From a virus (taxonomy: Duplodnaviria > Heunggongvirae > Uroviricota > Caudoviricetes): a stretch of 64,000 nt of DNA. The DNA is taken from the IMG/VR virus record IMGVR_UViG_3300036945_000956; one strand, 5' to 3'. The position numbers were made by a program, and so were the translations under genes. Under the pieces are notes generated by a model that saw only the letters and a list, made by a program, of their open reading frames with translations, made no database searches and was not told where the DNA came from. Positions 24,205 through 62,745 of the stretch are shown piece after piece. The first letter of the stretch is position 1; the number at the start of each line of letters is the position of its first letter.

Positions 24205-24267
24205 GTTTATCCTTTCATAGTCTATAGTTTAATATACACCAACTATAAGATATGTCAATCTAATAAT

Positions 24268-24302
24268 AAAATGTGGAGAGATTAAGTTCTCTCCACATTT
24301 TT
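24268..24302. terminator. Rho-independent terminator (AAAATGTGGAGAG...CTCTCCACATTTTT)
   Basis: Perfect 11 bp stem with A and T runs on both sides, immediately after the stop of the 24308..24655 gene. Confidence 0.7.
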
Positions 24303-24307
24303 AAGTA

Positions 24308-24655
24308 TTAGAAACTAACAGTGGCGCCAATAACTACATCACCGAAGTTAAAATTCTCATCTGTAGATACATTTGCATACAAATTAAAACTGTCGTTCAA
24401 ATCATACGAAGCTTCAAGATCAAGACCGACAAAATATACATCAGCCAAATCAATATCGGTACCGATTGTCAAGTCGACAGAAGCAAGACTGTAATACAAT
24501 GCTGGAGTTGCAGTCAATGCAATATCACCACCAGCGGTCAAATTGTATTCTGCATTGATGTCGGCGCCAACAGAGAAGCCATAGCCAAGGTCAGCAGCCA
24601 TTGCAGAAACAGCGGTCATTGCAAGGATGGTAGTTGCAAGAAGAATCTTTTTCAT
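24308..24655 (-). CDS. Secreted small beta-barrel outer-membrane-protein-like protein
   Basis: Signal peptide MKKILLATTILAMTAVSAMA. Alternating hydrophobic beta-strand pattern and a C-terminal Phe (…ATVSF), which is an OMP signature. Confidence 0.5.
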   Translation of the reverse strand: MKKILLATTILAMTAVSAMAADLGYGFSVGADINAEYNLTAGGDIALTATPALYYSLASVDLTIGTDIDLADVYFVGLDLEASYDLNDSFNLYANVSTDENFNFGDVVIGATVSF

Positions 24656-24689
24656 AGTATTTCCTTTAATTATATAAACATGTTTAAGT

Positions 24690-24996
24690 GAGCCCGTTAG
24701 GTTATACGGTGGAGCTCATACCGCAAGAGATTAAGCCGCTAGGCGAACCTCAGGTGCGAAATTTTCATTTGCCTTTAGTTTATTTAGCCGATACGAGGCC
24801 ATCCGGTAAACTCCACTCTATCTTCACACCTGTCGATCCTAATTTCGACCCCAGCAAAGATACACTACCAGACGGCGTAAAGCCTATCCCCGTGTCAAAA
24901 GACCATAAGCAGTGTATCTATGGTGGAGTCGTGCGGTACCGCCCCGCAGTCCAGAATGTGTCCATGTTGCTTCAATATTTACAAGTCTATTTATAA
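24690..24996 (-). ncRNA. ssrA: Circularly permuted (two-piece) tmRNA (ssrA)-like gene: acceptor piece followed by coding piece with a tag ORF
   Basis: On the minus strand, a T-arm UGCGG-GGCGGUA-CCGCA is followed by acceptor 3' strand CGACUCC, then A, then CCA (plus 24921 to 24950). After an intervening segment bracketed by the 9-bp inverted repeat AGAUACACU/AGUGUAUCU comes GGGGUCGAAAUUAGGAUCGACAGG (plus 24830 to 24853). That matches the tmRNA 5' consensus GGGGnnGAnnnnGGAUUCGACGGG, and its first 7 nt pair perfectly with CGACUCC. The downstream reading frame GCA AAU GAA AAU UUC GCA CCU GAG GUU CGC CUA GCG GCU UAA gives ANENFAPEVRLAA-stop (plus 24772 down to 24731). The GC content is far above the phage background. 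Confidence 0.6.
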
Positions 24997-25027
24997 CACC
25001 TTAATTAGTATATGTCAACCATTGTTT

Positions 25028-25327
25028 TCAAAGGTGTCCCCATGGTGTCCATGCTTTAGAATTATCAGTATCGGTAAAGTCATAGGTCTTTTCAAAGATG
25101 GCTTTATCACAAATATAAAGTTCAGCATCAATACCCATCATGAGATAGTCACCAGCTTTACCTTGCTTGTAATTACCTTCAAGAGTATTGACACGGAACT
25201 CTTCATGTATCTGTTTGGCATGAACAACAATAGGTCGTTTCATACAAGGTTGTAAATTATGCACATATTCATAAGTTTCAAACGTTTTCATATCAACCTC
25301 TATCATATCGCCTAATTGTTTCTTCAT
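25028..25327 (-). CDS. Hypothetical protein
   Basis: 99 aa ORF with the promoter cassette nearby (tatatgtcaacc at 25005 belongs to the downstream gene). Confidence 0.35.
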   Translation of the reverse strand: MKKQLGDMIEVDMKTFETYEYVHNLQPCMKRPIVVHAKQIHEEFRVNTLEGNYKQGKAGDYLMMGIDAELYICDKAIFEKTYDFTDTDNSKAWTPWGHL

Positions 25328-25425
25328 GTGTTAACTTATGTTTTGGTGTTGTCACAGGCACAGGAGGATTATCATCTTTCTTTTTAGCATCCTCTATGTC
25401 TGTTTCAAGTTTTTTATTATCCCAT

Positions 25426-25893
25426 TTAGCCATTGTCAGTTTCTTTCTTGTAAAAAATATGTCCGTCAATCTTTGTAGTAACAACATATGATTTTCTCCA
25501 AGAAGGTTTACTATTTAATGTGTGAAACATAACAGCACCATCTGTTGGATCGTTGCTAACCTTATGGGTTTTAAGAATCACATATGCTATATATAAGGCT
25601 CTAGCCCATGCATTATCATCCTTAGGATCATCAGACTTTTTATCTCTTGTCCATGAGAATTGACCTCTATCATAGACAACATCACAAATATCGTCTGGGT
25701 ATTCTGGAGAGTTAGTCCTATTAAGAGTCACCCATGCAACAGCTTTTTGACCCAGACTAGATTCACCTCTTGATTCAAAATAAACATTAAGTGCTAGACA
25801 ATTTAATTCATTCATATAATCATCATGTAGTGCTTCAACTTTAGTACTTGTTAAGATACTAGTGAGAATAATTATTCCTAAGATATATCTCAT
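25426..25893 (-). CDS. SleB-like cell wall hydrolase (Hydrolase_2 family) with signal peptide
   Basis: N-terminal hydrophobic leader. The motifs NVYFESRGE, AVAWVTLNR and YPDDICDVVYDRGQFSW match spore-cortex-lytic and cell-wall-hydrolase family proteins. Confidence 0.6.
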   Translation of the reverse strand: MRYILGIIILTSILTSTKVEALHDDYMNELNCLALNVYFESRGESSLGQKAVAWVTLNRTNSPEYPDDICDVVYDRGQFSWTRDKKSDDPKDDNAWARALYIAYVILKTHKVSNDPTDGAVMFHTLNSKPSWRKSYVVTTKIDGHIFYKKETDNG

Positions 25894-26036
25894 TTTGTAT
25901 TTCCTTATATAGTTAAAATATATTAGTTATAACTCATTAATCCTTTCATATTATTCAGAACCATTAATTCATTATACCATACTATAGAACTTTGTCAATA
26001 TAAATATGTTATATACTTATACAAAAATTACGTACT

Positions 26037-26354
26037 ATGGACAGAACAATGGACAAAAAGTCAAGTCGCATTGGTTATGATAGTGATGGAGATGGTGTTA
26101 TTTCAAATAGTGATATTAAAAAGACTCAAGAGATAATTGAGATTGAGAATCTAGATAAAAAAGAAGACCAACAACGGCGCATGGCATGGATTGCTATGGC
26201 GTCAATGGTCTTCTTTACAGCATTGTTATTTTTACCATGGATTGATACAGAACGCATCCAGGCTATAGATAATATCCTGGGCATGTTTTACATTGCCCAG
26301 GCTGGTGTAGTCGCTACATTTTTTGGAAGTCAAGCTTACATGAGCAGAAGTTAA
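26037..26354 (+). CDS. Small membrane protein (2 TM), candidate holin-like partner of the divergent hydrolase; late promoter upstream
   Basis: A rare plus-strand gene in this region. TATAAATA at 26005 to 26012 lies 25 nt upstream of the ATG. Hydrophobic segments are FFTALLFLPW and IAQAGVVATFFG. Confidence 0.45.
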   Translation: MDRTMDKKSSRIGYDSDGDGVISNSDIKKTQEIIEIENLDKKEDQQRRMAWIAMASMVFFTALLFLPWIDTERIQAIDNILGMFYIAQAGVVATFFGSQAYMSRS

Positions 26355-27301
26355 GCAGCCTCTGCCATTTCCAAGGCCAATTCCAAGGCCTGAGTTTTCA
26401 GCTTTTTGTTAGTGCCATACCATGCCGATTGCATCCGCGTATCGGCCGAGCGACCCAATTCATGGTCAGTCATGAAGGTAATCGAGTTAAAGGCAGACCA
26501 CCAAGAGCCTTCGGCAAACTCAGCACCTGGTTGTTCAATCAGAACTTCCATTGCACGGGCGGCGGTGCGGCTCAATTCACCTTCCTTCTTGTTTGACATA
26601 CCCAACAACTCACCGAAGTATTGTTTGACGGTATCCTCAGTGGTGCGCTTGGAGCCAAGGAAGGAAGCCATTTCCTTGTATTGCGACATCTTGAAGTGTG
26701 CAATGCCCATCATATCTTTGACAGCATCAGCATCAAACTTTTGACGGTGGTTCAACTTGACTGCATTTGCAGCGGTCTGGTTGAGCGACAATGTCAAGGT
26801 GTTGTTACATACCACACGGATAGGAGTAAACCGAATGTCGATGGTCTTGCCGTATTGGTGTGGGTTCGAGAAGAGCATGTAGCTCTCAACTTTATCACCA
26901 TTGAACAATTCAAAGTCATCATCAACTTTTGCCAAGGCCCAGATGATCTCACCGTTCTTCAAAGAACCTGCAGTGTGCATTTTCATCTTACCAGCATCGG
27001 TGAAGTCCTTGAAGAACTCAAAGGCCTCTTCGTTTTGGACAGGGTGCCAACCCTTGCCGACCTGAGTCAATACACGGCCGTCAGTTTCACGGATCAGTGC
27101 TTTCATACCGGTTGGGACTTTTTTGCCGTTGAACTCAGCAAAGGTTTCAACCTCTTGTACACGCCAGTCAACACCAGCAGCCTTCATCATATCGGCAGGA
27201 GCCAAATCATCGGCAACCTGAACACCCAGGCCATGCCAAGGCAATTCACCGACAAATGCCATCTGAGCAGCGCCGTTAACAAATTCAATCTCGTGAGCCA
27301 T
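26351..27301 (-). CDS. DUF932 family protein (phage and plasmid HGT-associated)
   Basis: 316 aa with the N-terminal signature ...LPWHGLGV... GC is about 50 percent against a background near 33 percent. Confidence 0.55.
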   Translation of the reverse strand: MAHEIEFVNGAAQMAFVGELPWHGLGVQVADDLAPADMMKAAGVDWRVQEVETFAEFNGKKVPTGMKALIRETDGRVLTQVGKGWHPVQNEEAFEFFKDFTDAGKMKMHTAGSLKNGEIIWALAKVDDDFELFNGDKVESYMLFSNPHQYGKTIDIRFTPIRVVCNNTLTLSLNQTAANAVKLNHRQKFDADAVKDMMGIAHFKMSQYKEMASFLGSKRTTEDTVKQYFGELLGMSNKKEGELSRTAARAMEVLIEQPGAEFAEGSWWSAFNSITFMTDHELGRSADTRMQSAWYGTNKKLKTQALELALEMAEAA

Positions 27302-27556
27302 TTTGTATTCCTCTGTTTTGTTTTGGTTACATAGTCAACATAACATACAATTAAAACAATGTCAACAATTATTTTTAAAATATTTCACAACCATCATATC
27401 TTTTTCAGTCAGCTTTTTCACAAAGGGCATACCTTGGTGAGCAACAAGATCACCGACACGAGCAAACTCATTTGCAAGAATGTCATTGTGATAGGTCTTA
27501 GCGACAGTCATCATGCGATCGCCTAGGATTTGAAGTTTATTCATGGTCAGTTCTCC

Positions 27557-27934
27557 TTATGCTGCAAACAAGAATTTTGCCATATCTTCGGCACATTTGT
27601 AACGCTTACCGTCAGAAGCTTTCTGATAGATGAAAGGCATCTTATGGGCACGACTGTTATAGCCAACAAGTTCATCACCATTGGCATTCTTCAGTTTTAG
27701 ACCTTTCAGTTTGATCACAGTCTCAAGCATAGAATCGGCACGAGTTTTCACACCGATGACCTTAGCCGTCACTTTGATCTCGACTTCAGCTTCACTGAAC
27801 TTCATATTGCCGACAGCAATCTCAAGATTTGCGGCAACACCGTATTTTTCAAGGACGGCAGCCATTTCAGCGCGAAGAGCTTTCAGATTAGCACGGTCAA
27901 ACTTAGCAAATTTAGTCATTGTCATTTCCTTCAT
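27557..27934 (-). CDS. Hypothetical protein; start inside the conserved promoter-SD cassette
   Basis: ATGAAGGAAATGACAATG sits directly downstream of TTGACA-17-TATAAA. The likely true start is the third ATG, with AAGGAAA as the SD. Confidence 0.5.
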   Translation of the reverse strand: MKEMTMTKFAKFDRANLKALRAEMAAVLEKYGVAANLEIAVGNMKFSEAEVEIKVTAKVIGVKTRADSMLETVIKLKGLKLKNANGDELVGYNSRAHKMPFIYQKASDGKRYKCAEDMAKFLFAA

Positions 27935-27947
27935 TGGTTACATATAC

Positions 27948-27976
27948 TTTATAATATAAACAAAAGCAAATGTCAA
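27948..27976 (-). promoter_or_regulatory. Early sigma70-like promoter (TTGACA, 17 bp spacer, TATAAA), prototype of the repeated cassette
   Basis: Read on the minus strand: GTTGTTGACATTTGCTTTTGTTTATATTATAAAGTATATGTAACCAATGAAGGAAATG. A near-identical 75 to 95 bp copy lies at 29457 to 29530. Confidence 0.7.
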
Positions 27977-27989
27977 CAACAAAATGCAT

Positions 27990-28235
27990 TTATTTCAAAT
28001 TATTTTTTGTTTCAATCAGAACACAAGGTGCCTCGGTTTCAATCCAAAGCTTTGCACCACATGGTCTAGGACTGTCTGGTCTATAGATCATTCGACTAGG
28101 ACCTTGTATATCGACTTCCATACAGTATTGTACAACACCATTGGTTTCGACACGGACAACTGGTTCCGCCCGACTATGCTTTGCATTCTGTTGAATGATG
28201 TTTCTATTGATATGGATAATGGTTGTGGTAGCCAT
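27990..28235 (-). CDS. Hypothetical small protein
   Basis: 81 aa ORF in the array of small early genes. Confidence 0.35.
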   Translation of the reverse strand: MATTTIIHINRNIIQQNAKHSRAEPVVRVETNGVVQYCMEVDIQGPSRMIYRPDSPRPCGAKLWIETEAPCVLIETKNNLK

Positions 28236-28238
28236 ATG

Positions 28239-29250: not shown

Positions 29251-29262
29251 GGTCAGTTCTCC

Positions 29263-29454
29263 TTAGTTGAAGCTGCGAACAAAGACGACTTTGTCGGTGA
29301 TCATATCCGACAGGCAGACTGTTTCTTGTGACAACTCCCGCAATGCCAAGAAGGCCTCAGCGGCTGCGACTGTCTCAAAAGATACCTTTTCCAGGCGGGC
29401 TGACGAAGTGAGCACATATGCAACAAACCGTTTAGTCATGTCATGTTCCTTCAT
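29263..29454 (-). CDS. Hypothetical protein carrying the promoter-SD-ATG cassette (MKEHDMTK)
   Basis: Starts with ATGAAGGAACATGACATGACTAAA downstream of the second promoter copy (tgtcaa at 29491 to 29496). Confidence 0.45.
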   Translation of the reverse strand: MKEHDMTKRFVAYVLTSSARLEKVSFETVAAAEAFLALRELSQETVCLSDMITDKVVFVRSFN

Positions 29455-29467
29455 TGGTTACATATAC

Positions 29468-29496
29468 TTTATAAAACAAACTAAAGTATATGTCAA
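29468..29496 (-). promoter_or_regulatory. Early promoter, duplicate of the 27948 cassette including the A-tract UP element
   Basis: Identical -35, spacer and -10. The identity extends through aaaatgcatttatttcaaattatttt. Confidence 0.65.
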
Positions 29497-29530
29497 CAAC
29501 AAAATGCATTTATTTCAAATTATTTTTCAA

Positions 29531-30466: not shown

Positions 30467-30778
30467 TTGTGCAGCAGCAACTGGATCTTTGTCAAGGATG
30501 AAAATATTAATTTTTTATTCCCCATATGTTTACATTAGTTTTATAATATAACCAGAACCAAATGTCAACAACTATTTTTGGTGAGTCTGATTTACGCCAA
30601 GAATACCGAGGATAACTGACTTGATGTGGTAGCATTCAAACTTCATCTTCTTTTTGCAGTTACACACGAAGCCGTCTGATAGCATTTCTACCTGAAACTG
30701 ACCATGTGGCCAGACAGTGCCGACTAACATATTGCCATCGGTGTTGATGTGTCTATGATTGAATGTCATTCAGTTCTC

Positions 30779-31447: not shown

Positions 31448-31702
31448 TTAATAAGCCAAGTAGGAAACAGAAATGATAGGATCATCGCCAAGTTTATACT
31501 CTTTAGCATATTCTACAGCCTTAGTAACCGCTTCCATGAAAGTCGGTGCCGTCACTGTCACCGGTATGGTCTTACCAACATAGCGAACCATCCACGTAGT
31601 CATAGTCTTTGCTCCATCACAATGCCCACAAGTACCTTCGGCACAGGCAACTCCTTCTTCTCTGTAACAAATCCCAGTCTCTGCTTCCCAATGTCCAGCC
31701 AT
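31448..31702 (-). CDS. Hypothetical Cys-rich protein
   Basis: 84 aa ORF with a CxxGxCGHC cluster. Promoter at 31705 to 31760. Confidence 0.4.
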   Translation of the reverse strand: MAGHWEAETGICYREEGVACAEGTCGHCDGAKTMTTWMVRYVGKTIPVTVTAPTFMEAVTKAVEYAKEYKLGDDPIISVSYLAY

Positions 31703-31762
31703 TTGATCTCTTCCCTTTTGGTTACATATACTTTATAATATAAACAAAAGTAAATGTCAACA

Positions 31763-31789
31763 AAAAAGAGCGCCGAAGCGCTCTTTTTC
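31763..31789 (-). terminator. Rho-independent terminator fused to the next promoter (GAGCGCTTCGGCGCTC hairpin plus T-run overlapping the -35 UP region)
   Basis: AAAAAGAGCGCCGAAGCGCTCTTTTT. The same element recurs at 34969 and 36630. Confidence 0.7.
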
Positions 31790-31799
31790 ACAACTATTT

Positions 31800-32468
31800 T
31801 CAGATACCTTTGAGTTCTGTATATTTTTTTCGGAGTACAATGAAGTTGTGAATATGATCATCACGGTTCTCAATAAAGACTTGTGGGTCATCACTATCGA
31901 CTGCTACAATCGTTACCAGTTGCTTGATGGGTTTACCTATACGCTCTTCGAAGGCAACAGCATAGAACGATTCTTGCATGAAGTAATTCTGAATCCACTC
32001 ACGTTTCTTTGGCTTACGAGAGGTTTTGAAGTCAATAATTGACAGTTTACCATTCCATTCTGCAACCAAGTCAACACGACCAGCTACTCGGATAAAATGT
32101 GAATAAAGAGGTGCTTCTTGGAACCAGATGTTATCTAGATGTTTGTCTAACAATGGTTTAATCTGATTGAAGGTAAACATATTGGTTGGCATTTTACCGA
32201 CGGCATAGTCTGGCTTGTTGTCAATATACTCTTCGGCAATCAAGTGAACTTCAGTTCCTCGAATGCCAGCCTGAGTGACAATTTTGGCTGCTTGTTCTTC
32301 ACCAACACTTTTCTTCCATTTTTCAAGACCATCCTTCTCCATAATAGATAGGACTGTAGTGACCGATGGATACTTTTCACCTGTTGGTGGGTAATAGAAT
32401 CTTCCAGTTGGAGTAGTATCACAATGTAGATCAGGTAGAATTAACCCGTGTTTCACATGATTAAACAT
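31800..32468 (-). CDS. PD-(D/E)xK superfamily nuclease (RecB/YqaJ-like)
   Basis: The motif GRVDLVAEWNGKLSIIDFKTS gives a D..E.K pattern. 222 aa. Sits 3 nt downstream of the PAAR-like gene. Confidence 0.5.
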   Translation of the reverse strand: MFNHVKHGLILPDLHCDTTPTGRFYYPPTGEKYPSVTTVLSIMEKDGLEKWKKSVGEEQAAKIVTQAGIRGTEVHLIAEEYIDNKPDYAVGKMPTNMFTFNQIKPLLDKHLDNIWFQEAPLYSHFIRVAGRVDLVAEWNGKLSIIDFKTSRKPKKREWIQNYFMQESFYAVAFEERIGKPIKQLVTIVAVDSDDPQVFIENRDDHIHNFIVLRKKYTELKGI

Positions 32469-34538: not shown

Positions 34539-34909
34539 TTTGCACCTTTCAGGTTCATTTCAACTTCTTCAAACTTTTTATTCCGTGGTGCATAAAACCA
34601 AATGTCACCATCCCAGAGATATAAATATTGTGCACCTGTGTCTGCATGACCTTCGTTCAGATATTCATCAACAGAATTGAAAGTTTCTGGACGATCATTA
34701 TGGGCCGCTCCAGCACGGCTCTGAGCATAGTCATGATATAGAGCCGAAAGATAACCACCGTAGGCAACCTTTTGTGCGCCGAGTTCAGTGTTATACGAAT
34801 CAACAAGTGTTGCGCCAACACCGTCAACATAGCCATCAAAGTGTACATACGAGGCAATAACTTTGCCGGTGCCCTTGTCAAAATGGCCGATCATTGCAGA
34901 AGTACCCAT
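34535..34909 (-). CDS. Hypothetical protein
   Basis: 124 aa. Start ATG lies within the cassette (AAAAGGAAATGACATGGGT). Confidence 0.4.
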   Translation of the reverse strand: MGTSAMIGHFDKGTGKVIASYVHFDGYVDGVGATLVDSYNTELGAQKVAYGGYLSALYHDYAQSRAGAAHNDRPETFNSVDEYLNEGHADTGAQYLYLWDGDIWFYAPRNKKFEEVEMNLKGAK

Positions 34910-34968
34910 GTCATTTCCTTTTCATTGGTTACATATATCTTATAAAACAACTACAACCCATTGTCAAC

Positions 34969-34994
34969 AAAAAAGAGCGCCGAAGCGCTCTTTT
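34969..34994 (-). terminator. Terminator-promoter fusion (copy 2)
   Basis: AAAAGAGCGCCGAAGCGCTCTTTT directly after the RtcB stop. TTGACA at 34962 to 34967. Confidence 0.7.
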
Positions 34995-34995
34995 C

Positions 34996-36369
34996 TCACA
35001 TTTTTTTCCACGACTTTTCAAAGTTACCAGCCATGATGTTACCATATGGCATGATACGATCAACAGTCACAGCCAAACCAAAACCCAACATATCAGCCTG
35101 AACAGTAGCAGCACTTTTGTAAGCACTTGGCAATTCACTGATGTCAGGTATTCCAGACCAGAACCGAGCATCAATACCACGAGTTTCCTGTGCTACCAAT
35201 TCGGCTTCAGACAAGGTCTGTTGACGAGCAAATTGTGAACGACTGAAGATACGACCGGCACCGTGTGGTGCAAAACCTATCTCATTGTCGGCATGTGCCT
35301 TAACAAACAAAATTGGCTCAGCCATGTTCATAGGAACAATTTGAGTGTCATATGGGTCACGCAACAAAGCAGTGTTAACAGGTGTAGAACCTTTGGCGTG
35401 ATATACCAATTGATCATCACTTGGGTCACGGAATACAAAGTTGTGTGGAGTAAAGATACGATCAGTACCAGAAACAGACAAACGACTCAACACAGCATCA
35501 TGCAAACTGTTATGGTTAGCACGAGTCCAATCGTGGGCAATCTCCAAAGCATCCCAATATTCAACACCTTCGTCAGTGTCCAATGGAATCCAGGCATTCT
35601 GCTTCAACGTTTTTGGGCTCATTTGAATCCGAAACTTTTCAGCAATCTCCATACCTTTTTTATAGATACCAGCGCCAAAACCACGGCTACCGAAGTGCGA
35701 GATCAACCAAACATCACCAGTGTTTTCACTACGGCCAACAGATATAAAATGGTTACCATCGCCAGAGGTGCGCAAATGACTCATAGAAGCATTTACAGTT
35801 TTTTGATCACGAGTAAAGCGGTTAACCAAAATGCGATCCAACAAACTCAAGTCAATTTGTTCAACAGGAGTCGAATGGCCACCAGGACCAAAGTGACTCA
35901 ATTCATGTGCAACATTCAATACATCCAAAGGATCAACATCACCGAAGTTGGTGGCACTCATAGAGCAACACACATCAGCTGAGTGCATGCCAGGATGGAT
36001 AGCATTACGAGTCACAACCATACCACCCACTGGGATAGTACCAATTGAACCTGCAGGACAAGCATCTGGCATTACCGAAGCACTTACAACTGTGGGAGTC
36101 TTGACCAATTCAGCCATAGTAGCCATTACAGCATTGTAGTTTGCGGTCTCGTATTCATCACCTTGTGACAAAAATACATTAATAGCAATATTGTCTTGCA
36201 ATGGCATATACACTGGTTCTACAGGCATATTTCGTTGGATAATGTCAGCCAAGACAGAGTCATCAACTACAGCAATCTGACGCAATTCTTTCAGGATCTT
36301 ACCGATATGTGGACCTGGCTTTACACCACGGTCAATCAAATCTTTGCCAGTCCAAACATATTGTTCCAT
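34996..36369 (-). CDS. rtcB: RtcB RNA 3'-phosphate/5'-OH ligase
   Basis: ASVMPDACPAGSIG, GDGNHF, PHNF and HGAGR match the RtcB catalytic motifs. 457 aa. Confidence 0.8.
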   Translation of the reverse strand: MEQYVWTGKDLIDRGVKPGPHIGKILKELRQIAVVDDSVLADIIQRNMPVEPVYMPLQDNIAINVFLSQGDEYETANYNAVMATMAELVKTPTVVSASVMPDACPAGSIGTIPVGGMVVTRNAIHPGMHSADVCCSMSATNFGDVDPLDVLNVAHELSHFGPGGHSTPVEQIDLSLLDRILVNRFTRDQKTVNASMSHLRTSGDGNHFISVGRSENTGDVWLISHFGSRGFGAGIYKKGMEIAEKFRIQMSPKTLKQNAWIPLDTDEGVEYWDALEIAHDWTRANHNSLHDAVLSRLSVSGTDRIFTPHNFVFRDPSDDQLVYHAKGSTPVNTALLRDPYDTQIVPMNMAEPILFVKAHADNEIGFAPHGAGRIFSRSQFARQQTLSEAELVAQETRGIDARFWSGIPDISELPSAYKSAATVQADMLGFGLAVTVDRIMPYGNIMAGNFEKSWKKM

Positions 36370-36380
36370 AGTTATTCTCC

Positions 36381-36578
36381 TTAAAGACTGTTGATACGTT
36401 CAACTTCACCGCTTTGGATGTCTTTCATTGCCCGAAAATATCCTTGAGTATTGGCACGTGACATTTCTTTAAGCAGAAGATCAGCAAGACGATCTACACC
36501 ATACAGATTAAAAGGAATATCAGATTCAAGGGATCCTTCAATCAAACTGATAAGGTCATTGCGAGTCATCATGATCAT
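36381..36578 (-). CDS. Hypothetical small protein
   Basis: 65 aa. SD AGAGGAAATGA within the cassette. Confidence 0.4.
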   Translation of the reverse strand: MIMMTRNDLISLIEGSLESDIPFNLYGVDRLADLLLKEMSRANTQGYFRAMKDIQSGEVERINSL

Positions 36579-36629
36579 TTCCTCTATTGGTTACATATAC
36601 TATATAAAACAAATAGAACCCATTGTCAA

Positions 36630-36655
36630 CAAAAAAGAGCGCCGAAGCGCTCTTT
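36630..36655 (-). terminator. Terminator-promoter fusion (copy 3)
   Basis: The same GAGCGC-TTCG-GCGCTC hairpin. TTGACA at 36624 to 36629. Confidence 0.7.
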
Positions 36656-36657
36656 TC

Positions 36658-36876
36658 TCACATTTTTTTCCATGTCTTGTTGTCGACCACAGGAGTATCA
36701 AGTTCATCTAGATACTGACTACGCTGATTCAACTTTTCTCTCCGTTTGTCACGAATGGATTGTTTCTTGTCATCATAGTCAAAGTCTGGAGCCCAATCAC
36801 TACCATAATCTTCTGCATAGGCATTACGCTTTTTCGACATCGCTTTTCTCATTAATAATGTTACCGAATGCTTCAT
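36658..36876 (-). CDS. Hypothetical basic protein
   Basis: 72 aa. Confidence 0.35.
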   Translation of the reverse strand: MKHSVTLLMRKAMSKKRNAYAEDYGSDWAPDFDYDDKKQSIRDKRREKLNQRSQYLDELDTPVVDNKTWKKM

Positions 36877-38115: not shown

Positions 38116-38170
38116 TTATTATCTCCAAAAATTAACTCATAGTATAAGTATACACTATTTATAGCAAATG

Positions 38171-38500
38171 TCAATCACTTTCCATAATTTCACGAAAACT
38201 AATTAAATGTTCCTCGTATTCAATGTCGATAAGTTTTTCCGATAGGATTTGTGCATCACATGGAATTCCGGCAACACGAGTGATCAATGCTTTTAGAACA
38301 TCAATCATCAGATAAATATCACCCATTGATTTAATGTCATTCTCTAATGGAATACCCATCTCATCTAATAGGACTCCAATATCCGCGGCAATACTGATTG
38401 CATATTGTAGGGCTTCATCTTCGTCAAGAATCGCAATATTTTCTTCGTCTTGTTCTTTTTTCTTTTCTTTTGCTACAGTAAAGTCGACTACATTGTTCAT
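38171..38500 (-). CDS. Hypothetical acidic protein
   Basis: 109 aa. Confidence 0.35.
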   Translation of the reverse strand: MNNVVDFTVAKEKKKEQDEENIAILDEDEALQYAISIAADIGVLLDEMGIPLENDIKSMGDIYLMIDVLKALITRVAGIPCDAQILSEKLIDIEYEEHLISFREIMESD

Positions 38501-43723: not shown

Positions 43724-44005
43724 TTATTCTCCTTCAAACCCGATCAACTCAACCACCGTATAACAAGGGGCCACAGTAAACGGCAAACCAAATTTATCTT
43801 TTTTGAACAAACCCCACAAAAAGTCATAGATGGCTTGTTCAGCTTCTTTACGAGTTTCAAATTGTTTGTCTGAGTATTCATCACCAAACAAGAATTCACC
43901 TGGAGTACCTTCAGACCAGTTAGAAGCAACAGGGCGGATCATCAAGCCTTCTTTAGTTAATTGACGGATTACATAAACTCTGGTCAACATGGTTATTTCC
44001 TTCAT
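43724..44005 (-). CDS. Hypothetical protein; likely start MLTRV after the cassette SD
   Basis: ATGAAGGAAATAACCATG within the promoter cassette. Confidence 0.4.
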   Translation of the reverse strand: MKEITMLTRVYVIRQLTKEGLMIRPVASNWSEGTPGEFLFGDEYSDKQFETRKEAEQAIYDFLWGLFKKDKFGLPFTVAPCYTVVELIGFEGE

Positions 44006-44050
44006 TGGTTACATATACTTTATAAAACAATTCAAAGCAAATGTCAACAA

Positions 44051-44374
44051 CTATTTTTGTAAAAAGAATAATATAAGCCAAAAGGCTGACATTATTGTGA
44101 ACACACTCACAGCAATAAAGATTTGTCCATTAACTGCATCTCTCAAGTCTCGTTTTACTTTTTGAGTTGTATTAATTTGTTCTTGTAACATTCTATAATA
44201 TTTCTGGGACTCAGTTCGAGCTTGAGTAACCAGCTGTGCCCACTGCTCGTCTCGCTCTTGGTCAATTGGTGCATCAGCTTTCAAACCTTTCTTGCGAGCC
44301 ATGCGAAGGCAAGCAATAGCTTCATCTTCGGAAGTGGTGCTTAGAGCCTTGGCTATTAGTTGATTAGCACTCAT
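44051..44374 (-). CDS. Hypothetical membrane-anchored protein (C-terminal TM)
   Basis: 107 aa. C-terminal IFIAVSVFTIMSAFWLILFFL. Confidence 0.35.
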   Translation of the reverse strand: MSANQLIAKALSTTSEDEAIACLRMARKKGLKADAPIDQERDEQWAQLVTQARTESQKYYRMLQEQINTTQKVKRDLRDAVNGQIFIAVSVFTIMSAFWLILFFLQK

Positions 44375-45788: not shown

Positions 45789-46127
45789 TCACTCAGCTTC
45801 TGTTACTTCAATTGCCACTACATGGAATTCAGCAGGACCTTCATCTGCATACCACTCGTCTTCTGGGTCAAACCAGCAAAAGTCAGACAGTGGAATAAAA
45901 CTAATTCCATTAGGACCTTTAGAATTGACAAAATACCGTTTAGTTTTGAAAGTGCTATGACGGCCCATTTCACTTACAGACACTTCAACTAAACGACTTG
46001 TGACGTCACAACAAATGCCGTCGATTTCAATAACTCTGATGTCAGTCAGTACTTTACCACCAGCTTTGTAAACATGGTGGCCATATTCATCTTCAAAGTA
46101 AATAGTGTGTTTCATCTTCATCTCCAT
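45789..46127 (-). CDS. Hypothetical protein
   Basis: 112 aa. Promoter with tgtcaa at 46163. Confidence 0.35.
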   Translation of the reverse strand: MEMKMKHTIYFEDEYGHHVYKAGGKVLTDIRVIEIDGICCDVTSRLVEVSVSEMGRHSTFKTKRYFVNSKGPNGISFIPLSDFCWFDPEDEWYADEGPAEFHVVAIEVTEAE

Positions 46128-46178
46128 TTGATATATACTTTATAAAACAAATCAAAGCAAATGTCAACAACTAAATGC

Positions 46179-46209
46179 AAAAAAGGCGACCGAAGCCGCC
46201 TTTTGTTTT
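46179..46209 (-). terminator. Terminator variant (GGCGGCTTCGGTCGCC plus T-run) fused to a promoter
   Basis: AAAAAAGGCGACCGAAGCCGCCTTTTG directly after the SPFH stop. Confidence 0.65.
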
Positions 46210-47673: not shown

Positions 47674-47892
47674 TCATTTTTCCTCCACAATATCTTGAAA
47701 GAATTGAAGCAGTTCTTCCTTTTGATCTGCAACAGTTTCTTCATGAGAGATGAAGATACCATTCGTATCCCATCTCTCATTGTTCAATCCATCTTTCAGG
47801 ACCACCATGACACCATTACCTTCAGACCACATCTTTCCGACCTTGGTCAGTCGACGTTTACCTAACCACTTGGTGATCATAGCAGTATTCAT
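47674..47892 (-). CDS. Hypothetical protein
   Basis: 72 aa. SD AGGAGG. Promoter with tgtcaa at 47953. Confidence 0.4.
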   Translation of the reverse strand: MNTAMITKWLGKRRLTKVGKMWSEGNGVMVVLKDGLNNERWDTNGIFISHEETVADQKEELLQFFQDIVEEK

Positions 47893-48007
47893 GTAAGGTC
47901 CTCCTAGACCTGTTGCCTACATATATTTTATATACCAACCAAAACCAAATGTCAACAACTATTTTGTCTCATTTTGCAATTATCACCGTGCCATCTGTTA
48001 TGGTTTC

Positions 48008-49830: not shown

Positions 49831-50084
49831 GCCACAATGTGGACAGGGTGTTGGTCGCCAATCTGTGTTGTTTATTTAGTTTACCTCATATTCAAATGTT
49901 TGAGTTTCATATCCTTGGCTTTCATACCAGTCAGAGATGTATCCTGCAAATTTTGGATCGGATTCAACACGTTGACCAATCTTGATCAAACCTTCGTAGA
50001 TAGCAATCACATAACGTTTCATCATATATCCTTTGTTCATAATCATAAGTAAGTTATACCATAAACAAAACCAAATGTCAACAA

Positions 50085-50306
50085 CTATTTTACCTGAAAT
50101 GTACCAATTGGGCTATTCAGTGCAATTTGGAACTGCTCAAACATTTCGGGTGACATACCAACTTCCTTAAAGTTTTCAGAATCTTCATCCCACTGTCGGA
50201 TGATAACAATATCCTCATACAAATAGATTTGTACATCTTCATAGAATCCACCATCATCTAGAATTGTTACAATTGTTTCATCATGATCCATTTCATTTGT
50301 GAACAT
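50085..50306 (-). CDS. Hypothetical acidic protein
   Basis: 73 aa. Confidence 0.3.
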   Translation of the reverse strand: MFTNEMDHDETIVTILDDGGFYEDVQIYLYEDIVIIRQWDEDSENFKEVGMSPEMFEQFQIALNSPIGTFQVK

Positions 50307-56008: not shown

Positions 56009-56233
56009 TTATCGTTTCCTCAACTTCTCATAGATTTCATAACCAATCGTTCCAGGCAGAGACATCTGGAACTTGTTAAGTATAAAAGTAATCTCTTCCT
56101 GAGACAACTCTTCGTCTGGCTCCCAACCTTTTTCTTCACCCACAAACCAACCACGATTCTCAAGTTCGGCGATCAATTCTTGGTCGTCAACCGTGTCCAA
56201 TTCAAACTCAACATCCATATTAACGTAAGGCAT
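56009..56233 (-). CDS. Hypothetical acidic protein
   Basis: 74 aa. Confidence 0.3.
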   Translation of the reverse strand: MPYVNMDVEFELDTVDDQELIAELENRGWFVGEEKGWEPDEELSQEEITFILNKFQMSLPGTIGYEIYEKLRKR

Positions 56234-56416
56234 TTTACTTCTCCATTATTATATTAGTTTTATATCACAACCAACACAAAATGTCAATCCTTAATTGCAT
56301 CTTTAATAAAAGTTGTTGCTTTTACTTCTCCACAAGCAGCGCAATAAACTAGACTATATGGAAAAAGAAAGTCACCATATTTCAGATGACTTTCTTTAAT
56401 TATAATAATAGTATTA

Positions 56417-56911: not shown

Positions 56912-56993
56912 AATATTATTACCTTTCCATTACCTATAATTAATTATACACCTACCTACTTATATGTCAACTAAAAAGTAGATTCTAGACATA

Positions 56994-57030
56994 AAAAAAG
57001 CGGAGCACAGAGGCTCCGCTTGAGGGTAGT
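56994..57030 (-). terminator. Rho-independent terminator after speD
   Basis: AGCGGAGCCTCTGTGCTCCGCT hairpin plus T7 on the minus strand. Confidence 0.65.
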
Positions 57031-57500: not shown

Positions 57501-57504
57501 ATAT

Positions 57505-58829: not shown

Positions 58830-59345
58830 TTATGTTATTTTTATCAATGTGCGGTTATGAATTCGTTGGATATTGTAACCGCCGGCAAGGATAGTGCGGA
58901 TATTGATATGATGATCACCAACGTTGAAACTACCTTCATAACCATCACTCATGTGTGTCAGATCAAAGTCAGGAATAGTCTCAATATTCTTCTTACGCAG
59001 AGCCGAGATGATTTGCAAATCACGTTTTGCAATAAGAGCATTCGTATTCTTCATCATGTTCTCAAGGCCACCGGCAAGACCACGATCGGCAATCAAATTC
59101 ATCATGGATTGACTACCCCAGTACTTGATCACTTCAGGACCACGCAATTTGTAATCCATACGGCCTGTATGTTGAGCATCCCATTCCTTCATATGAGGTT
59201 GGAAACCTTTGATCTTTTTCTCTGCCCATTCTTGGTCAGACTTAATCAGTTTGGCATTCAACTCTGCAAACGCTTTAGTGATCTTGGCTTGCATATCTTT
59301 TTCAATTGAAAAGGTCGAGAAATTTGATACGGTCATGGCGAACAT
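58830..59345 (-). CDS. Hypothetical protein (171 aa)
   Basis: ORF 40 nt downstream of a promoter cassette (taatgtcaacaac at 59385). Confidence 0.4.
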   Translation of the reverse strand: MFAMTVSNFSTFSIEKDMQAKITKAFAELNAKLIKSDQEWAEKKIKGFQPHMKEWDAQHTGRMDYKLRGPEVIKYWGSQSMMNLIADRGLAGGLENMMKNTNALIAKRDLQIISALRKKNIETIPDFDLTHMSDGYEGSFNVGDHHINIRTILAGGYNIQRIHNRTLIKIT

Positions 59346-59401
59346 CTCCTGTTGATATAATACTTATATATCACATAGAAAGTAATGTCAACAACTATTT
59401 T

Positions 59402-59493
59402 TGGCGGATCGTGTAGGATTTGAACCTACGGTAGAACTTTTGCCCTACGACGGTTTAGCAAACCGCTGATTTAAACCACTCATCCAACGATCC
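59402..59493 (-). tRNA. tRNA-Ser (GCU), long variable arm
   Basis: Acceptor GGATCGT/ACGATCC-G-CCA. Anticodon loop TTGCTAA. Long variable arm. T-arm GTAGG-TTCAAAT-CCTAC. Confidence 0.7.
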
Positions 59494-59608
59494 AATTCTT
59501 CATATGAAGGATACACCGGTCTTAATCCACCAGACATCGGTTCATCCACGTACACGCGGCAGCCATAAGCAAGACGATCGAGCACGCTTCACGGTGTATC
59601 CATGATAT

Positions 59609-59686
59609 AAAGAATATTGGTGCCTTCGGTGAGATTCGAACTCACACTAGACCGCTTTTGAGGCAGTCGCCTCTACCAGGTTGGGC
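59609..59686 (-). tRNA. tRNA, type I, anticodon loop CUCAAAA (reads as CAA by position; identity uncertain)
   Basis: Acceptor GCCTTCG/CGAAGGC-A-CCA. T-arm GTGAG-TTCGAAT-CTCAC. Confidence 0.5.
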
Positions 59687-60916: not shown

Positions 60917-61116
60917 TCAATTACTCCTTGCATATCAGTATTTATAATACTATTTATTTCATAGGAGTATCGGAATCGAACCGATAGTTTTTGTTTTCTT
61001 GCTGTAAACATTCTAAATTAGTATTGCTAGGGGTTTCGGACGCTCCCTATTACGCAGCACTACGCTACTCGACTTACGCCTAAGTCTGGGTCTGTTAGTT
61101 CCGGCCTAGCAATTTT

Positions 61117-61194
61117 TGGTGCCTCTAGTCGGATTCGAACCGACACTGTATGGCTTCTAAGACCATTGCCTGCTACCAATTGGGCTACAGAGGC
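61117..61194 (-). tRNA. tRNA, type I, anticodon loop CUUAGAA (UAG by position; identity uncertain)
   Basis: Acceptor GCCTCTG/TAGAGGC-A-CCA. T-arm GTCGG-TTCGAAT-CCGAC. Confidence 0.5.
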
Positions 61195-61199
61195 ATATT

Positions 61200-61273
61200 T
61201 GGTAGTCTGTGAGGGAATCGAACCCACGTAGTCGCCGTGTAAAGACGATGTTCTACCATTGAACTAACAGACC
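61200..61273 (-). tRNA. tRNA-Val (UAC)
   Basis: Acceptor GGTCTGT/ACAGACT-A-CCA. D-stem GTTC/GAAC. Anticodon stem TCGTC/GGCGA with loop TTTACAC. Confidence 0.65.
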
Positions 61274-61416
61274 ATAATTGCTGGAGTCGACGTGATAATT
61301 CAATCGACTCCGAAACCCTTTTGTGCACATGGTACATAGGGAAATTTGGTGAAGTGGATTTACGTCGTATGCCACTTCGGTGTTGAGATTTCGACACGGA
61401 GTACTCAACGTATATT

Positions 61417-61490
61417 GGCGATCTATGGGGTAATCGAAACCCCGCCCTCGGATAGACAATCCGGTACGCTACCACTACGTCAATAGACCA
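61417..61490 (-). tRNA. tRNA-Asp (GUC) probable
   Basis: Acceptor GGTCTAT/ATAGATC-G-CCA. T-arm GGGGT-TTCGATT-ACCCC. Anticodon loop TTGTCTA on a 4 bp stem. Confidence 0.55.
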
Positions 61491-61495
61491 ATTTT

Positions 61496-61570
61496 GGAGC
61501 GGAGAATGGGAATCGAACCCACGACCTTCTCGTTGGCAACGAGTGGCTCTACCTCTGAGCTACCTCCGCA
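61496..61570 (-). tRNA. tRNA-Gly (GCC)
   Basis: GCGGAGGTAGCTCAGAGGTAGAGC...TTGCCAA loop...GTGGGTTCGATTCCCAT...CTCCGCTCCA. Confidence 0.65.
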
Positions 61571-61778
61571 ATTTAATTCTGGTGTCGATCTTCCTGCAAA
61601 TCCTGAGAAGGAATTTAACGATTTTACCAGCAGGCCGTCGATCATAAAGTAAAAATCTCGGTTATAAATACACCGCCAGAAACTGAATATGATGGAATAA
61701 CGAGCATCGGCCATGAACCGATAGTCTTTTTAGTTTCCATGTCAATACTTTGTAAACTCTGACACAACCATCATAACT

Positions 61779-61853
61779 TGGTGGAGAATGGGGGATTCGA
61801 ACCCCCGACTCAAGCGTGCAAGGCTAGTGTTTTCCCGATTAGACTAATTCCCC
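61779..61853 (-). tRNA. tRNA (anticodon not resolved by eye)
   Basis: Acceptor GGGGAAT/ATTCTCC-A-CCA. T-arm GGGGG-TTCGAAT-CCCCC. Confidence 0.5.
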
Positions 61854-62053
61854 GTTATTTGTTGTTTCTCATAAAGAATGAACACTTCTTAAAGTTTTCA
61901 AGACCTATCTCTTTGATAGTTGCCACAAACGCGGCAATTAATGCTTCTTCTCGTGTCATTGTTCATTCCTTTTAATTTAACAGGATCGTTTTGTCCGCTA
62001 AGACATCATTGCATTGATTTAGCGTTTTGGTTTGCTGAACCGATCCTAAACTA

Positions 62054-62144
62054 TGGCGGAGAGTGTGAGATTCGAACTCACGGAACGCTATTAACGTTCG
62101 GTAGTTTTCAAGACTACAGGCATAATCCTCTCGCCCAACTCTCC
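62054..62144 (-). tRNA. tRNA-Ser (UGA), long variable arm
   Basis: Acceptor GGAGAGT/ACTCTCC-G-CCA. Anticodon stem GTAGT/ACTAC with loop CTTGAAA. Variable arm CGAACGTTAATAGCGTTCC. Confidence 0.7.
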
Positions 62145-62151
62145 GTATATT

Positions 62152-62227
62152 TGGCTCCTGAGGAGGGTTACGATCCCCCGACCAACGAGTTAACAGCTCG
62201 GCGCTCTACCAACTGAGCTACTCAGGA
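62152..62227 (-). tRNA. tRNA-Asn (GUU)
   Basis: TCCTGAGTAGCTCAGTTGGTAGAGC...CTGTTAA loop...CTCAGGAGCCA. Confidence 0.65.
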
Positions 62228-62299
62228 ACATTGGTTATAATATGAAGGGCGACTATATCCTTCATCATTTTACCCTGACTAGCAGGTCTGCGCTGTATT

Positions 62300-62375
62300 T
62301 GGTTGCGGTGGGACGGACTCGAACCGTCGATCTACTGGTTATGAGCCAGTCAAGATGCCTCTTCTCTACCCCGCA
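62300..62375 (-). tRNA. tRNA-Met/Ile-like (CAU anticodon), slightly irregular acceptor and T-arm junction
   Basis: Anticodon stem ACTGG/CCAGT with loop CTCATAA. D-stem GAGA/TCTT. T-arm GACGG-TTCGAGT-CCGTC. The acceptor has 1 mismatch and an extra nucleotide. Confidence 0.5.
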
Positions 62376-62714
62376 AAACTTAATTTGAAAATGCTTTGGT
62401 CGACTCACCGATTCGAACGGTTAAGTAACTAGTGTAGTATCCACATACCTACGCCAAAGAATGCACTAGACTCATTTTCAAAACTCTGTTTTCAACGATA
62501 CACCACCAAAGCGTCTTTCTGGGCATAACCAGCGACCACCATGTCTACTCGCTTACATCTTTCGAATGGCGCACGAGGTATATCTGTGAAAACAGAATTT
62601 CTTCTGTTTCTCTCTATTATCGACCGAAGTCTAAGAGTAATTCTAAATTGTCAAAGAGCAAGTAGTAAGGTTGTTTTTCATTCCCTATGTGTTATATATA
62701 TCATATATGGAATG

Positions 62715-62745
62715 GATGTCAACAACTATTTTTGTTTTTTACATT
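62715..62745 (-). promoter_or_regulatory. Early promoter cassette upstream of the tRNA cluster
   Basis: ggatgtcaacaactatttttg, the same -35 and UP context as the other copies, oriented toward the tRNAs. Confidence 0.5.

Follow-up and report, generated by a model that had tools for sequence, protein, structure and literature searches.

What do the repeated promoter sequences in the early region of this phage do: start transcription, or also move genes? The DNA analysed here, called the window below, is the whole 64,000-nucleotide (nt) stretch of IMG/VR record IMGVR_UViG_3300036945_000956, which derives from an uncultured myovirus of the T4 superfamily. An initial annotation had described about 20 copies of one cassette joining a promoter, a Shine–Dalgarno (SD) sequence and an ATG, and had proposed that this portable unit mediates gene shuffling by recombination. 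The copies lie in what would be the early, 'hyperplastic' leftward region of a T4-like genome (~24–63 kb). We find that they are very probably strong σ70-type early promoters, some fused to a terminator, and that recombination between copies would shuffle the genes among them, as at the PeSL elements of other T4-like phages.

A family of early promoter cassettes

Promoters and cassettes are named here by the first base of the −35 hexamer, and all of those described lie on the minus strand. TTGACA was present on that strand at 20/20 of the annotated positions, with a TATAAA/TATAAT-like hexamer 16–17 nt downstream. A scan for TTGACA-N17-TATAAA with at most one mismatch gave 13 matches where 1.33 ± 1.04 were expected, and every one was on the minus strand; with a looser −10-like hexamer there were 24 minus-strand and three plus-strand sites. 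Together these results bear out a recurring promoter–SD–ATG cassette with TTGACA, a 17-nt spacer, TATAAA and an SD sequence. The architecture described in the initial annotation was right, but its consensus string as typed had no match at up to three mismatches, because the spacer was one T short. Outside the annotated list, a good promoter site was found at 25998 and a weaker one at 23309. A standard promoter/terminator scanner was uninformative (64 promoter-like sites against 63 expected) and was replaced by these purpose-made scans; it misses TATAAA because it requires T at the last −10 position, and it misses the GAGCGC hairpins because A·T pairs extend their stems into the T-run.

The annotated copies are not all of one kind. 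An nhmmer profile search with leave-one-out defined an extended family of 14 sites (62722, 59391, 56287, 50081, 47955, 46167, 44047, 36629, 34967, 31760, 30568, 29496, 27976 and 27365), of which 10 were recovered at E ≤ 2e-6 and the other four at ~1e-3 to 6e-3. The sites 24258, 25018, 38174, 39720, 41679 and 56970 have the σ70 hexamers alone in common with this family; the first four gave E-values of 0.46–2.5 and the last two had no match at E ≤ 10. The count of about 20 therefore holds for TTGACA, which is present at all 20 positions, while about 14 copies belong to the extended family and six are generic σ70-type promoters. No profile match with E < 0.1 was found at 1–27 kb, and the structural region (1–24 kb) holds no copies. 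The 14 extended copies are confined to 27.3–62.7 kb, where they are surrounded by small open reading frames (ORFs) of unknown function. The TTGACA sites 54487 and 52329 were considered as further copies and rejected; both fall in the 3′ ends of homing-endonuclease-like ORFs, and 54487 also overlaps a resumed SLOG reading frame described below.

An extended cassette is 65–95 nt long and comprises an A-rich tract or terminator, the −35 hexamer, a conserved T-rich spacer of 17 nt, the −10 hexamer, a leader box (GTATATGTAACCAA), the SD sequence and the ATG. Upstream of the −35 lies CAAAAATAGTTG, AAAAATAATTTGAAATAAATGCATTTTG or the T-run of a hairpin, and the SD sequence and start codon follow 22–35 nt downstream of the −10. 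A repeat finder returned a 12-copy family of 53 nt, and the leader box occurred eight times at two or fewer mismatches, seven of these in cassettes, against 0.86 expected. The repeat pair 34924–35016 and 36586–36678 is 92% identical over 93 nt. A second pair, 27911–28007 and 29431–29527, had been annotated as identical over ~75 to 95 bp; the pair is real, but its identity is 89% over 97 nt, with identical blocks of 38 and 28 nt flanking a 17-nt spacer that differs between the two copies (27976 and 29496).

The placement of the copies is strict. Every extended copy falls within an intergenic spacer, 59–115 nt long, in a region of which 12.6% is intergenic. The 5′ edge of the cassette is the stop codon of the upstream gene and the 3′ edge is the SD sequence and start codon of the downstream gene; in copies 34967 and 36629 the repeat even includes the …WKKM* end of two different upstream ORFs. 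Dispersed copies with homing-endonuclease-like genes nearby (52304–53017 and 54477–55238) might also be read as miniature mobile elements, similar to miniature inverted-repeat transposable elements, or as homing-endonuclease footprints. This reading is extremely improbable and was rejected: neither terminal inverted repeats nor target-site duplications were seen, the copies are co-oriented with the genes and sit exactly between a stop codon and the next ribosome-binding site (RBS), and the endonuclease genes have a different repeat, built on a late-type promoter.

Inclusion of the start codon in the repeat also affects gene calling. The N-termini MKEMTMTK and MKEHDMTK, annotated on unrelated proteins, are present, and beyond them the proteins are indeed unrelated. 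Both begin at an upstream ATG in CCAATGAAGGAA, 13 nt after the −10 and without an SD sequence. The downstream ATG, 28 nt after the −10, is preceded by AAGGAA and gives MTK…, so that the proposal of this codon as the probable true start is reasonable.

Terminator-like hairpins are fused to some of the promoters. GAGCGCTTCGGCGCTC followed by a T-run is present in exactly three copies (31764–31783, 34971–34990 and 36633–36652; 0 expected), with a free energy of −17.4 kcal/mol. A shared terminator had been annotated at four sites; it is the same at 31763, 34969 and 36630, whereas the hairpin at 46179 (46204–46181) is GGCGGCTTCGGTCGCC, which differs in the stem and has an equal UUCG loop. Two generic promoters are also preceded by hairpins, 56970 by AAGCGGAGC…GCTCCGCTT with T8 (57021–56998) and 24258 by a strong terminator-like hairpin at 24301–24268 (−20 kcal/mol). 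Free energies of the hairpins lie between −14 and −20 kcal/mol (z-scores −3.6 to −7.9), and a T-run follows each; a hairpin stands directly upstream in 6–7/24 promoters. The suggestion that each gene is an insulated unit did not hold: there are ~17 promoters for 62 genes at 22–51 kb (~3.6 genes per promoter) and 6–7 terminators, and the units are therefore short operons, not single genes.

In the transcriptional scheme that we propose, the σ70-type early promoters would divide the early region into short transcription units. Host RNA polymerase would initiate about 7 nt past the −10, with the A-rich CAAAAATAGTTG tract or the terminator T-run occupying the position of an UP element. The hairpin, where present, would end the upstream unit and block read-through, and each promoter would drive 1–7 small genes or the tRNA array. 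The gene for transfer-messenger RNA (tmRNA) would be driven by a generic promoter and not by a copy of the cassette family. We infer the promoter and terminator activities, and the transcription start sites with them.

Gene exchange between cassettes

Relatives of the window were found by exact-word scans with the cassette sequences and by a protein-based scan. Loci L002 and L128 belong to one 18.8-kb contig (IMGVR_UViG_3300017778_002158) that is 92–96% identical over window 23196–42547. The other loci lie on separate contigs: L122 is 87–90% identical to the window, L148, L146 and L150 are 80–97% identical, and L129, L123, L001, L125, L126, L130, L131 and L132 are about 65–84% identical. L143, which was recovered by way of an identical protein, is collinear with the window at 99.84% identity and carries no indel information.

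The clearest event concerns a cargo module at 34996..36578 (minus strand), which consists of a 62-aa ORF (36381–36569) and a gene for an RtcB-type RNA ligase (34996–36369). The module is bracketed by the direct-repeat cassettes 36629 and 34967, at a repeat spacing of 1,662 bp. In both L128 (93–95%) and L122 (87–90%), the alignment to the window stops at 36570 and resumes at 35016, and a 110-nt stretch of each relative aligns to both window cassettes. In a four-way alignment this stretch is a single hybrid cassette, with the upstream flank of the 36629 copy and the downstream flank of the 34967 copy; between the flanks of the hybrid, the two window copies are identical over 54 nt. RtcB was absent from the equivalent place in L129, L123 and L001 and from every related locus examined, and no donor of the module was found in the viral contigs searched. 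Its nearest phage homologues are from Tenacibaculum and Cellulophaga phages (Bacteroidota), at 45–52% amino-acid identity. Parsimony favours an insertion in the window lineage. We regard this event as qualitatively the decisive case for cassette-bounded exchange, and the apparent insertion of a self-expressing module between cassettes as an unusually clean natural example of the mechanism. As an accessory RNA-repair enzyme in a phage with ~14 tRNAs, RtcB would plausibly counteract anticodon nucleases of the host.

Since the copies are near-identical direct repeats, the homologous recombination machinery of the phage could cross over between copies of 50–95 nt. Such a crossover would delete, insert or swap the intervening genes, and the neighbouring genes would keep an intact promoter and RBS.

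Four slots behind cassettes vary in content between relatives, and homology is lost within the leader of the cassette. At the slot behind 31760, the sequences of the window, L002 and L148 hardly differ up to and including …TATAAAGTATATGTAACCAA, and after the leader box they diverge completely. The window has an ORF beginning MAGHWEAE…, L148 has an extra 75-aa ORF before the homologue of that ORF, and L002 has MKHPIYIEDDYGHHVY…, which is 64% identical to the window ORF behind 46167, ~14 kb away; a single ORF family, MKH(T/P)IY…, is thus found behind 46167 in the window and behind the 31760 equivalent in L002. Behind 46167, L146 and L150 hold a different ORF of 55–59 aa. Behind 30568 there is a 145-aa ORF in L002, a ~33-aa ORF in L148 and none in the window. 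Behind 29496, a 58-aa ORF is present in the window alone and is missing in L002, and both ends of this indel share GGAAC(A/C)TGAC(C)ATGAC(T/C)AAA.

The cassettes themselves are also mosaic. In 6–7/13 comparisons of positional orthologues, the core of the relative's cassette best matched a non-orthologous window copy. The L002 cassette at the 30568 slot, for example, is 73% identical to 30568 and 98% identical to 31760, within flanks that are about 92% identical. The comparison shows the direct repeats to be sites of deletion, insertion, replacement and patchy conversion, and the RtcB indel, the four variable slots and the mosaic cores support the idea of a portable cassette with gene shuffling by recombination.

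Synteny breakpoints between close relatives coincided with 7/9 junctions that hold an extended cassette, with 15/39 plain junctions and with 0/6 generic-promoter junctions; none of the generic promoters 38174, 39720, 41679 and 25998 lies at a breakpoint. The difference between cassette junctions and all others (15/45) gave p = 0.023 in a Fisher test, and the association of cassettes with breakpoints is real but modest.

A number of observations count against the view that promoter cassettes serve as the sites of exchange. Compared with plain junctions alone, the breakpoint enrichment reaches only p = 0.06, and a cassette is lacking at 15/22 variable junctions. Nor is there one at the two-ORF indel at 28586/28588 or at position 42547, where homology ends, and short SD/ATG microhomologies at ordinary gene junctions evidently also serve exchange. 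The change in GC content across cassettes does not exceed that at other gene junctions (p = 0.74), so that the expectation of cassettes bordering regions of differing GC was not borne out. The −10 hexamer is mostly TATAAA, TATAAG or TATAAC and lacks the usually conserved final T. A stem-loop accompanies 5/14 extended copies (31760, 34967, 36629, 46167 and, weakly, 44047), and the nine without a convincing stem-loop are plain early promoters. Finally, the extended conservation and the lineage consensus could reflect selection by the transcription machinery rather than gene conversion.

This last point can be taken further. If the repeats were strong early promoters and nothing else, their extended similarity would be kept by selection for polymerase capture or promoter escape, and the indels at cassettes would be incidental. 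T4 early promoters resemble the window promoters in being many strong host-σ70 promoters with A/T-rich upstream sequence that serve small early genes and tRNAs, and they show extra consensus beyond the −35, −10 and UP sequences, up to an 'über' UP/−35/TGn/−10 promoter (Hinton 2010; PMC2988021). The cassette consensus is lineage-specific, with identities of 0.70–0.84 within genomes and 0.58–0.65 between genomes, which fits tuning to one particular host or to a polymerase modified by the phage; the predominance of breakpoints at cassette-less junctions, the p-values of about 0.02–0.06 and the lack of a GC discontinuity fit equally. However, most window copies lack the TGn extended −10 of the T4 promoters, and they are far more alike, up to 89–92% over 93–97 nt, an identity that argues for copying rather than convergence. 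Their similarity also covers parts with no promoter role, namely the …WKKM* codons and stop, the identical terminator, and the sequence from the SD to ATGAC(T/C)AAA. Selection on promoters would explain neither a module between two 93-nt direct repeats for which relatives have the exact single-copy recombinant, nor orthologous slots whose cores are copied from other slots within flanks of 92–94% identity. We therefore consider it rather unlikely that the repeats are promoters alone.

Rearrangement away from cassettes was also seen directly. L148 1247–1638, compared with window 31222–31616, has homologues of the ORFs 31448–31702 and 31227–31436 in swapped order, and L148 lacks homologues of the window ORFs 30779–31227. 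The order of small genes is therefore permuted even where the junctions have no cassette.

Recombining promoter cassettes have precedents. In the promoter-early stem-loops (PeSLs) described by Arbiol et al. (2010; PMC2839356), the stop codon is followed in turn by an AT-rich region, a σ70 promoter, a stem-loop, an SD sequence and an ATG; these elements are concentrated in hyperplastic regions, indels occur between them, and mini-circles were reported. For RB49/phi1, experiments have demonstrated the promoter and terminator activities as well as the mini-circles, and according to the discussion in that paper T4-type recombination needs < 50 bp of homology (PMC2839356). Comeau et al. (2014) reported PeSLs in T4/PST and KVP40/nt-1 and proposed them in probably all T4-likes; the elements of PST and nt-1 have their stem-loop immediately ahead of the promoter (PMC4122927). 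The cassettes of the window are this published phenomenon, which the initial annotation did not recognise. They share with PeSLs the T4-like hyperplastic early region, the form of intergenic repeats with the order stop codon, AT-rich region, σ70 −35, N17, −10, SD and ATG, the perfect TTGACA −35 of RB49, in the copies that have a stem-loop its position as in PST and nt-1, and the vicinity of insertions, deletions and replacements between close relatives. The RtcB indel between two cassettes would fit the 'mini-circle' model of excision and integration. Differences are found as well. The window lineage is distant, with a gp6 45% identical to that of the nearest isolate, which is phiM12-like; the hairpin is GAGCGC-UUCG-GCGCUC, whereas PeSLs have Gn-loop-Cn or A3-4G3…C3T3-4; only about one in three window copies has a stem-loop; the −10 reads TATAAA where PeSLs have TATAAT; and the first ~14 transcribed bases are strongly conserved. 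The window cassettes are known from sequence, and their promoter and terminator activities and their circles are predictions. The result adds an uncultured, distant branch of the T4 superfamily to the phages with PeSL-type cassettes and leaves the current understanding of phage genome evolution unchanged. For annotation it offers corrected start codons, a definition of the early transcription units, and a flag on slots of strain-variable genes.

The exchange could instead be site-specific. In integrons, IntI acts on attC and attI sites, and unrelated small ORFs occupy variable slots bounded by a repeated structured sequence; the promoter-proximal variable slots of the window, with their unrelated small ORFs, resemble this. 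A recombinase or structure-specific nuclease acting at the hairpin or leader box would insert circular gene cassettes downstream of the promoter. Breakpoints do fall repeatedly at the 3′ edge of the leader box, and the GAGCGCTTCGGCGCTC-type hairpin with its −35 is kept in relatives whose genes are only ~70% identical. Site-specific recombination was left open by Arbiol et al. (PMC2839356). However, homologous recombination likewise yields breakpoints at the edge of a conserved block, the RtcB crossover zone is a 54-nt identical stretch, and many indels have no cassette. Each window slot brings its own promoter, unlike those of an integron, and the repeats are direct, contain the promoter and fit homologous exchange. 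No integrase or recombinase, including an IntI-type tyrosine recombinase, was found among about 30 window ORFs scanned against Pfam and PHROG. Capture of the integron type is very unlikely, and we infer that the exchange is homologous rather than site-specific.

Other phages also have short intergenic repeats conserved at gene starts, namely the start-associated sequences and stoperators of mycobacteriophages and the boundary or linker sequences of lambdoid phages, for which roles as regulatory sites, recombination linkers or both have been proposed. They belong to other phage groups, are about 13 bp long and are not complete promoter–terminator–RBS units.

A possible signal in the leader box

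The conserved start of the transcript (GTATATGTAACCAA, or GTAAATGTAGGCAA in a relative) contains an ATG followed by a stop codon exactly 4 nt after the −10 in both versions. We examined this motif in the window, L129, L001, L123 and L127. ATG plus stop (ATGTAA in the window, ATGTAG in L129) occurs 4 nt past the −10 in 21/59 promoters of the phage clade, a count that is not made up of independent cases because the copies are homologous. In addition, copies 27976 and 29496 have a perfect palindrome of 10 nt, AAATGCATTT, ~8 nt ahead of the −35 (27985–27994 and 29505–29514, minus strand), and a similar …ATGCATTTTG… is found upstream of several cassettes in L129 and L001. The palindrome is a possible operator.

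The start-stop, the palindrome or both could thus be a regulon signature recognised by a phage regulator, for which a RegA-like translational repressor, an early-transcription shut-off protein or a 5′-terminal ribosome-loading signal are candidates. The fixed offset of the start-stop and the recurrence of the palindrome among cassettes of the window, L129 and L001 speak for such a signature, and the box has UAUGUAA in common with the SELEX consensus of T4 RegA, aaAAUUGUUAUGUAA (PMC3014915). Against this, seven shared nucleotides carry little weight as evidence in AT-rich sequence, the window yielded no identified regulator gene, and the cassette families of L125 and L126 lack the start-stop motif. 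We hold a regulon signature to be doubtful; it would in any case be compatible with promoter cassettes that recombine, rather than an alternative to them. There is a similarly small chance that the first ~14 transcribed bases form a separate RNA or DNA signal, such as a RegA-like operator, a ribosome-loading start-stop or the site of a recombination factor. If the last of these were true, the cassettes would be genuine integron-like capture sites in a virulent phage.

In two distant relatives (L039 at 10633 and L025 at 6292), the promoters read TATAATAGATTCATAGATTGAAAAAGGAG. This sequence differs little from the −10 and initially transcribed bases of the coliphage T5 promoter PN25.

Individual copies and their surroundings

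The copies with GAGCGCTTCGGCGCTC are full cassettes. Cassette 34967 (34907..35016) runs from the end of RtcB (…SWKKM*) through the hairpin with T6 (34995–34970), the −35 (34967–34962), the −10 TATAAG (34944–34939), the leader ATATATGTAACCAA and the SD AAGGAA to the ATG at 34909. Cassette 36629 (36567..36678) begins with the stop of the ORF 36658–36876 (…TWKKM*), followed by the hairpin at 36657–36632, the −35 (36629–36624), the −10 TATATA (36606–36601), the leader box, the SD and the ATG at 36569. In cassette 31760 (31700..31809) the hairpin with T6 lies at 31789–31762, the −35 at 31760–31755, the −10 TATAAA at 31737–31732 and the ATG at 31702, with the leader GTATATGTAACCAA and an SD sequence in between.

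Cassette 46167 (46113..46204; −35 46167–46162, −10 46144–46139, variant leader, ATG 46115) is preceded by an SPFH/Band_7 gene and then by the terminator AAAAGGCGGCTTCGGTCGCCTTTTTT (46204–46181). The SPFH/Band_7 gene (46227–47171, minus strand) is conserved across all relatives (L123–L126, L129, L130). In the more distant ones it is followed by an exact GAGCGCTTCGGCGCTC-T6-GTTGACA, where the window has GGCGGCTTCGGTCGCC instead, and the terminator behind this gene appears to have been swapped between lineages. Cassette 44047 (43988..44096; −35 44047–44042, −10 44024–44019, ATG 43990) has a weak hairpin at 44096–44067 (−10.7 kcal/mol), CAAAAATAGTTG, the leader box and the SD AAGGAA.

The remaining copies carry no hairpin of this kind. 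Cassette 29496 (29437..29527; −35 29496–29491, −10 29473–29468, ATG 29439) has the upstream block AAAAATAATTTGAAATAAATGCATTTTGTTG, the leader box and an SD, with the 58-aa ORF 29263–29439 downstream. Its partner 27976 (27917..28007; −35 27976–27971, −10 27953–27948, ATG 27919) has the leader box and the SD AAGGAA, and its in-frame upstream ATG at 27934 is the source of the spurious MKEMTMTK N-terminus. Cassette 30568 (30509..30579) has a diverged leader, similar to that of copy 56287, and directly abuts a Pyr_excise-like gene (29948–30511). This gene has ATT in the window where L002 and L148 have an ATG start (…GGGGAATAAAAAATTAATATTTTC; 30505–30530, minus strand), which reflects either a rare ATT start or damage by deletion of an ORF between 30568 and the gene. 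The more diverged cassette 27365 (27299..27375; −10 TATGTT) lies upstream of a DUF932 gene (26351–27301), and an orthologous copy is kept in L002 and L129.

Further upstream in the leftward region, cassette 47955 (47890..47965; −35 47955–47950, −10 TATAAA 47932–47927, ATG 47892) has AAAATAGTTG upstream, the leader ATATATGTAGGCAA and the SD AGGAGG. Cassette 50081 (50020..50091; −35 50081–50076, −10 TATAAC 50058–50053) also has AAAATAGTTG, with the SD AAGGA and an ATG at 50025 or 50022. Cassette 56287 (56231..56298; −35 56287–56282, −10 TATAAA 56264–56259, SD GGAG, ATG 56233) is a weaker member of the family. In the last two copies, 59391 and 62722, AAAAATAGTTG precedes the −35. Cassette 59391 (59334..59402; −35 59391–59386, −10 TATAAG 59368–59363, SD GGAG, ATG 59336) has a tRNA-Ser immediately upstream. 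Cassette 62722 (62669..62733; −35 62722–62717, −10 TATATA 62700–62695), a weak family member, has no protein gene behind it and heads the tRNA array, which begins with tRNA-Met at 62375. The array (57426–62375, minus strand) comprises 12 ARAGORN tRNAs interspersed with small ORFs; an Rfam scan gave 13 tRNA matches, the extra one at 58625–58697.

Among the generic promoters, 24258 (24231..24301; −35 24258–24253, −10 TATATT) falls outside the extended family, and 56970 (56943..57021) is the consensus TTGACA-N16-TATAAT at 56970–56943. A motif scan placed others upstream of the gene with a T4-type RNase H domain (38147..38174; gene 37267–38115) and at 39720–39692, 41679–41652 and 25998–25971. It also found TTGACA-N17-TATAAA(TA) directly upstream of the tmRNA gene (24990..25018), which can be read as TTGACA-N17-TATAAATA (25018–24988). 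The tmRNA itself (24687–25036, minus strand) is of the permuted, two-piece alpha type (Rfam tmRNA_permuted 99.6 bits, alpha_tmRNA 86.7 bits), with the tag ANENFAPEVRLAA (ANENFAPEV). The T4-like aquatic myophage Melnitz has a two-piece ssrA behind an early promoter in an equal arrangement (PMC9004378). Because of its two-piece, alpha-type tmRNA, the host of this phage branch is probably an aquatic alphaproteobacterium; a scan of bacterial genomes for the tag, made as a host search, gave no match.

Other features agree with the T4-like assignment. Baseplate and tail genes in the left third of the window matched the PHROG families gp6-, gp7-, gp5- and gp48/54-like, and tblastn with the gp6 homologue matched 2,389 T4-like phage records, the best being Sinorhizobium phages phiN3 (45.6%) and phiM12 (45.3%). 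From ~24 to 64 kb nearly all genes are on the minus strand and include ~100 small ORFs, RNase H, RtcB, 13–14 tRNA genes and the tmRNA. Megablast of the window against 50,697 phage records found no match and no close relative.

A second, unrelated type of cassette accompanies two paralogous homing-endonuclease-like ORFs on the minus strand (52304–53092 and 54477–55312 including the upstream repeat; NUMOD3 motif in 54477–55238). Each is preceded by a 79-nt repeat, 97% identical between the two, with a T4-late-type TATAAATA, a GGGAGACTCCCC hairpin, the SD AGGAG and an ATG, and both ORFs terminate in a common block of ~27 nt. This repeat would be a late-promoter 'expression cassette'. The ORF 54477–55238 appears to split a YspA/SLOG (PF10686) gene (54380–55698, minus strand): the N-terminal part is the ORF 55318–55698, and the C-terminal part (…VIVAFKGGNGTAHMIKIGR) resumes at ~54490 in another frame. 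An Rfam search for a group I intron at the split gene gave no match, and in L126 the YspA/SLOG sequence is uninterrupted.

The T4 late-promoter core TATAAATA is itself enriched, with 20 copies in the window against six expected, which likewise fits a T4-like phage. Three of these motifs (18157, plus strand; 18181 and 18266, minus strand) fall in the divergent intergenic region 18150–18280, between the leftward tail/baseplate genes and the rightward genes at 18198–22202, and are likely to be back-to-back late promoters.

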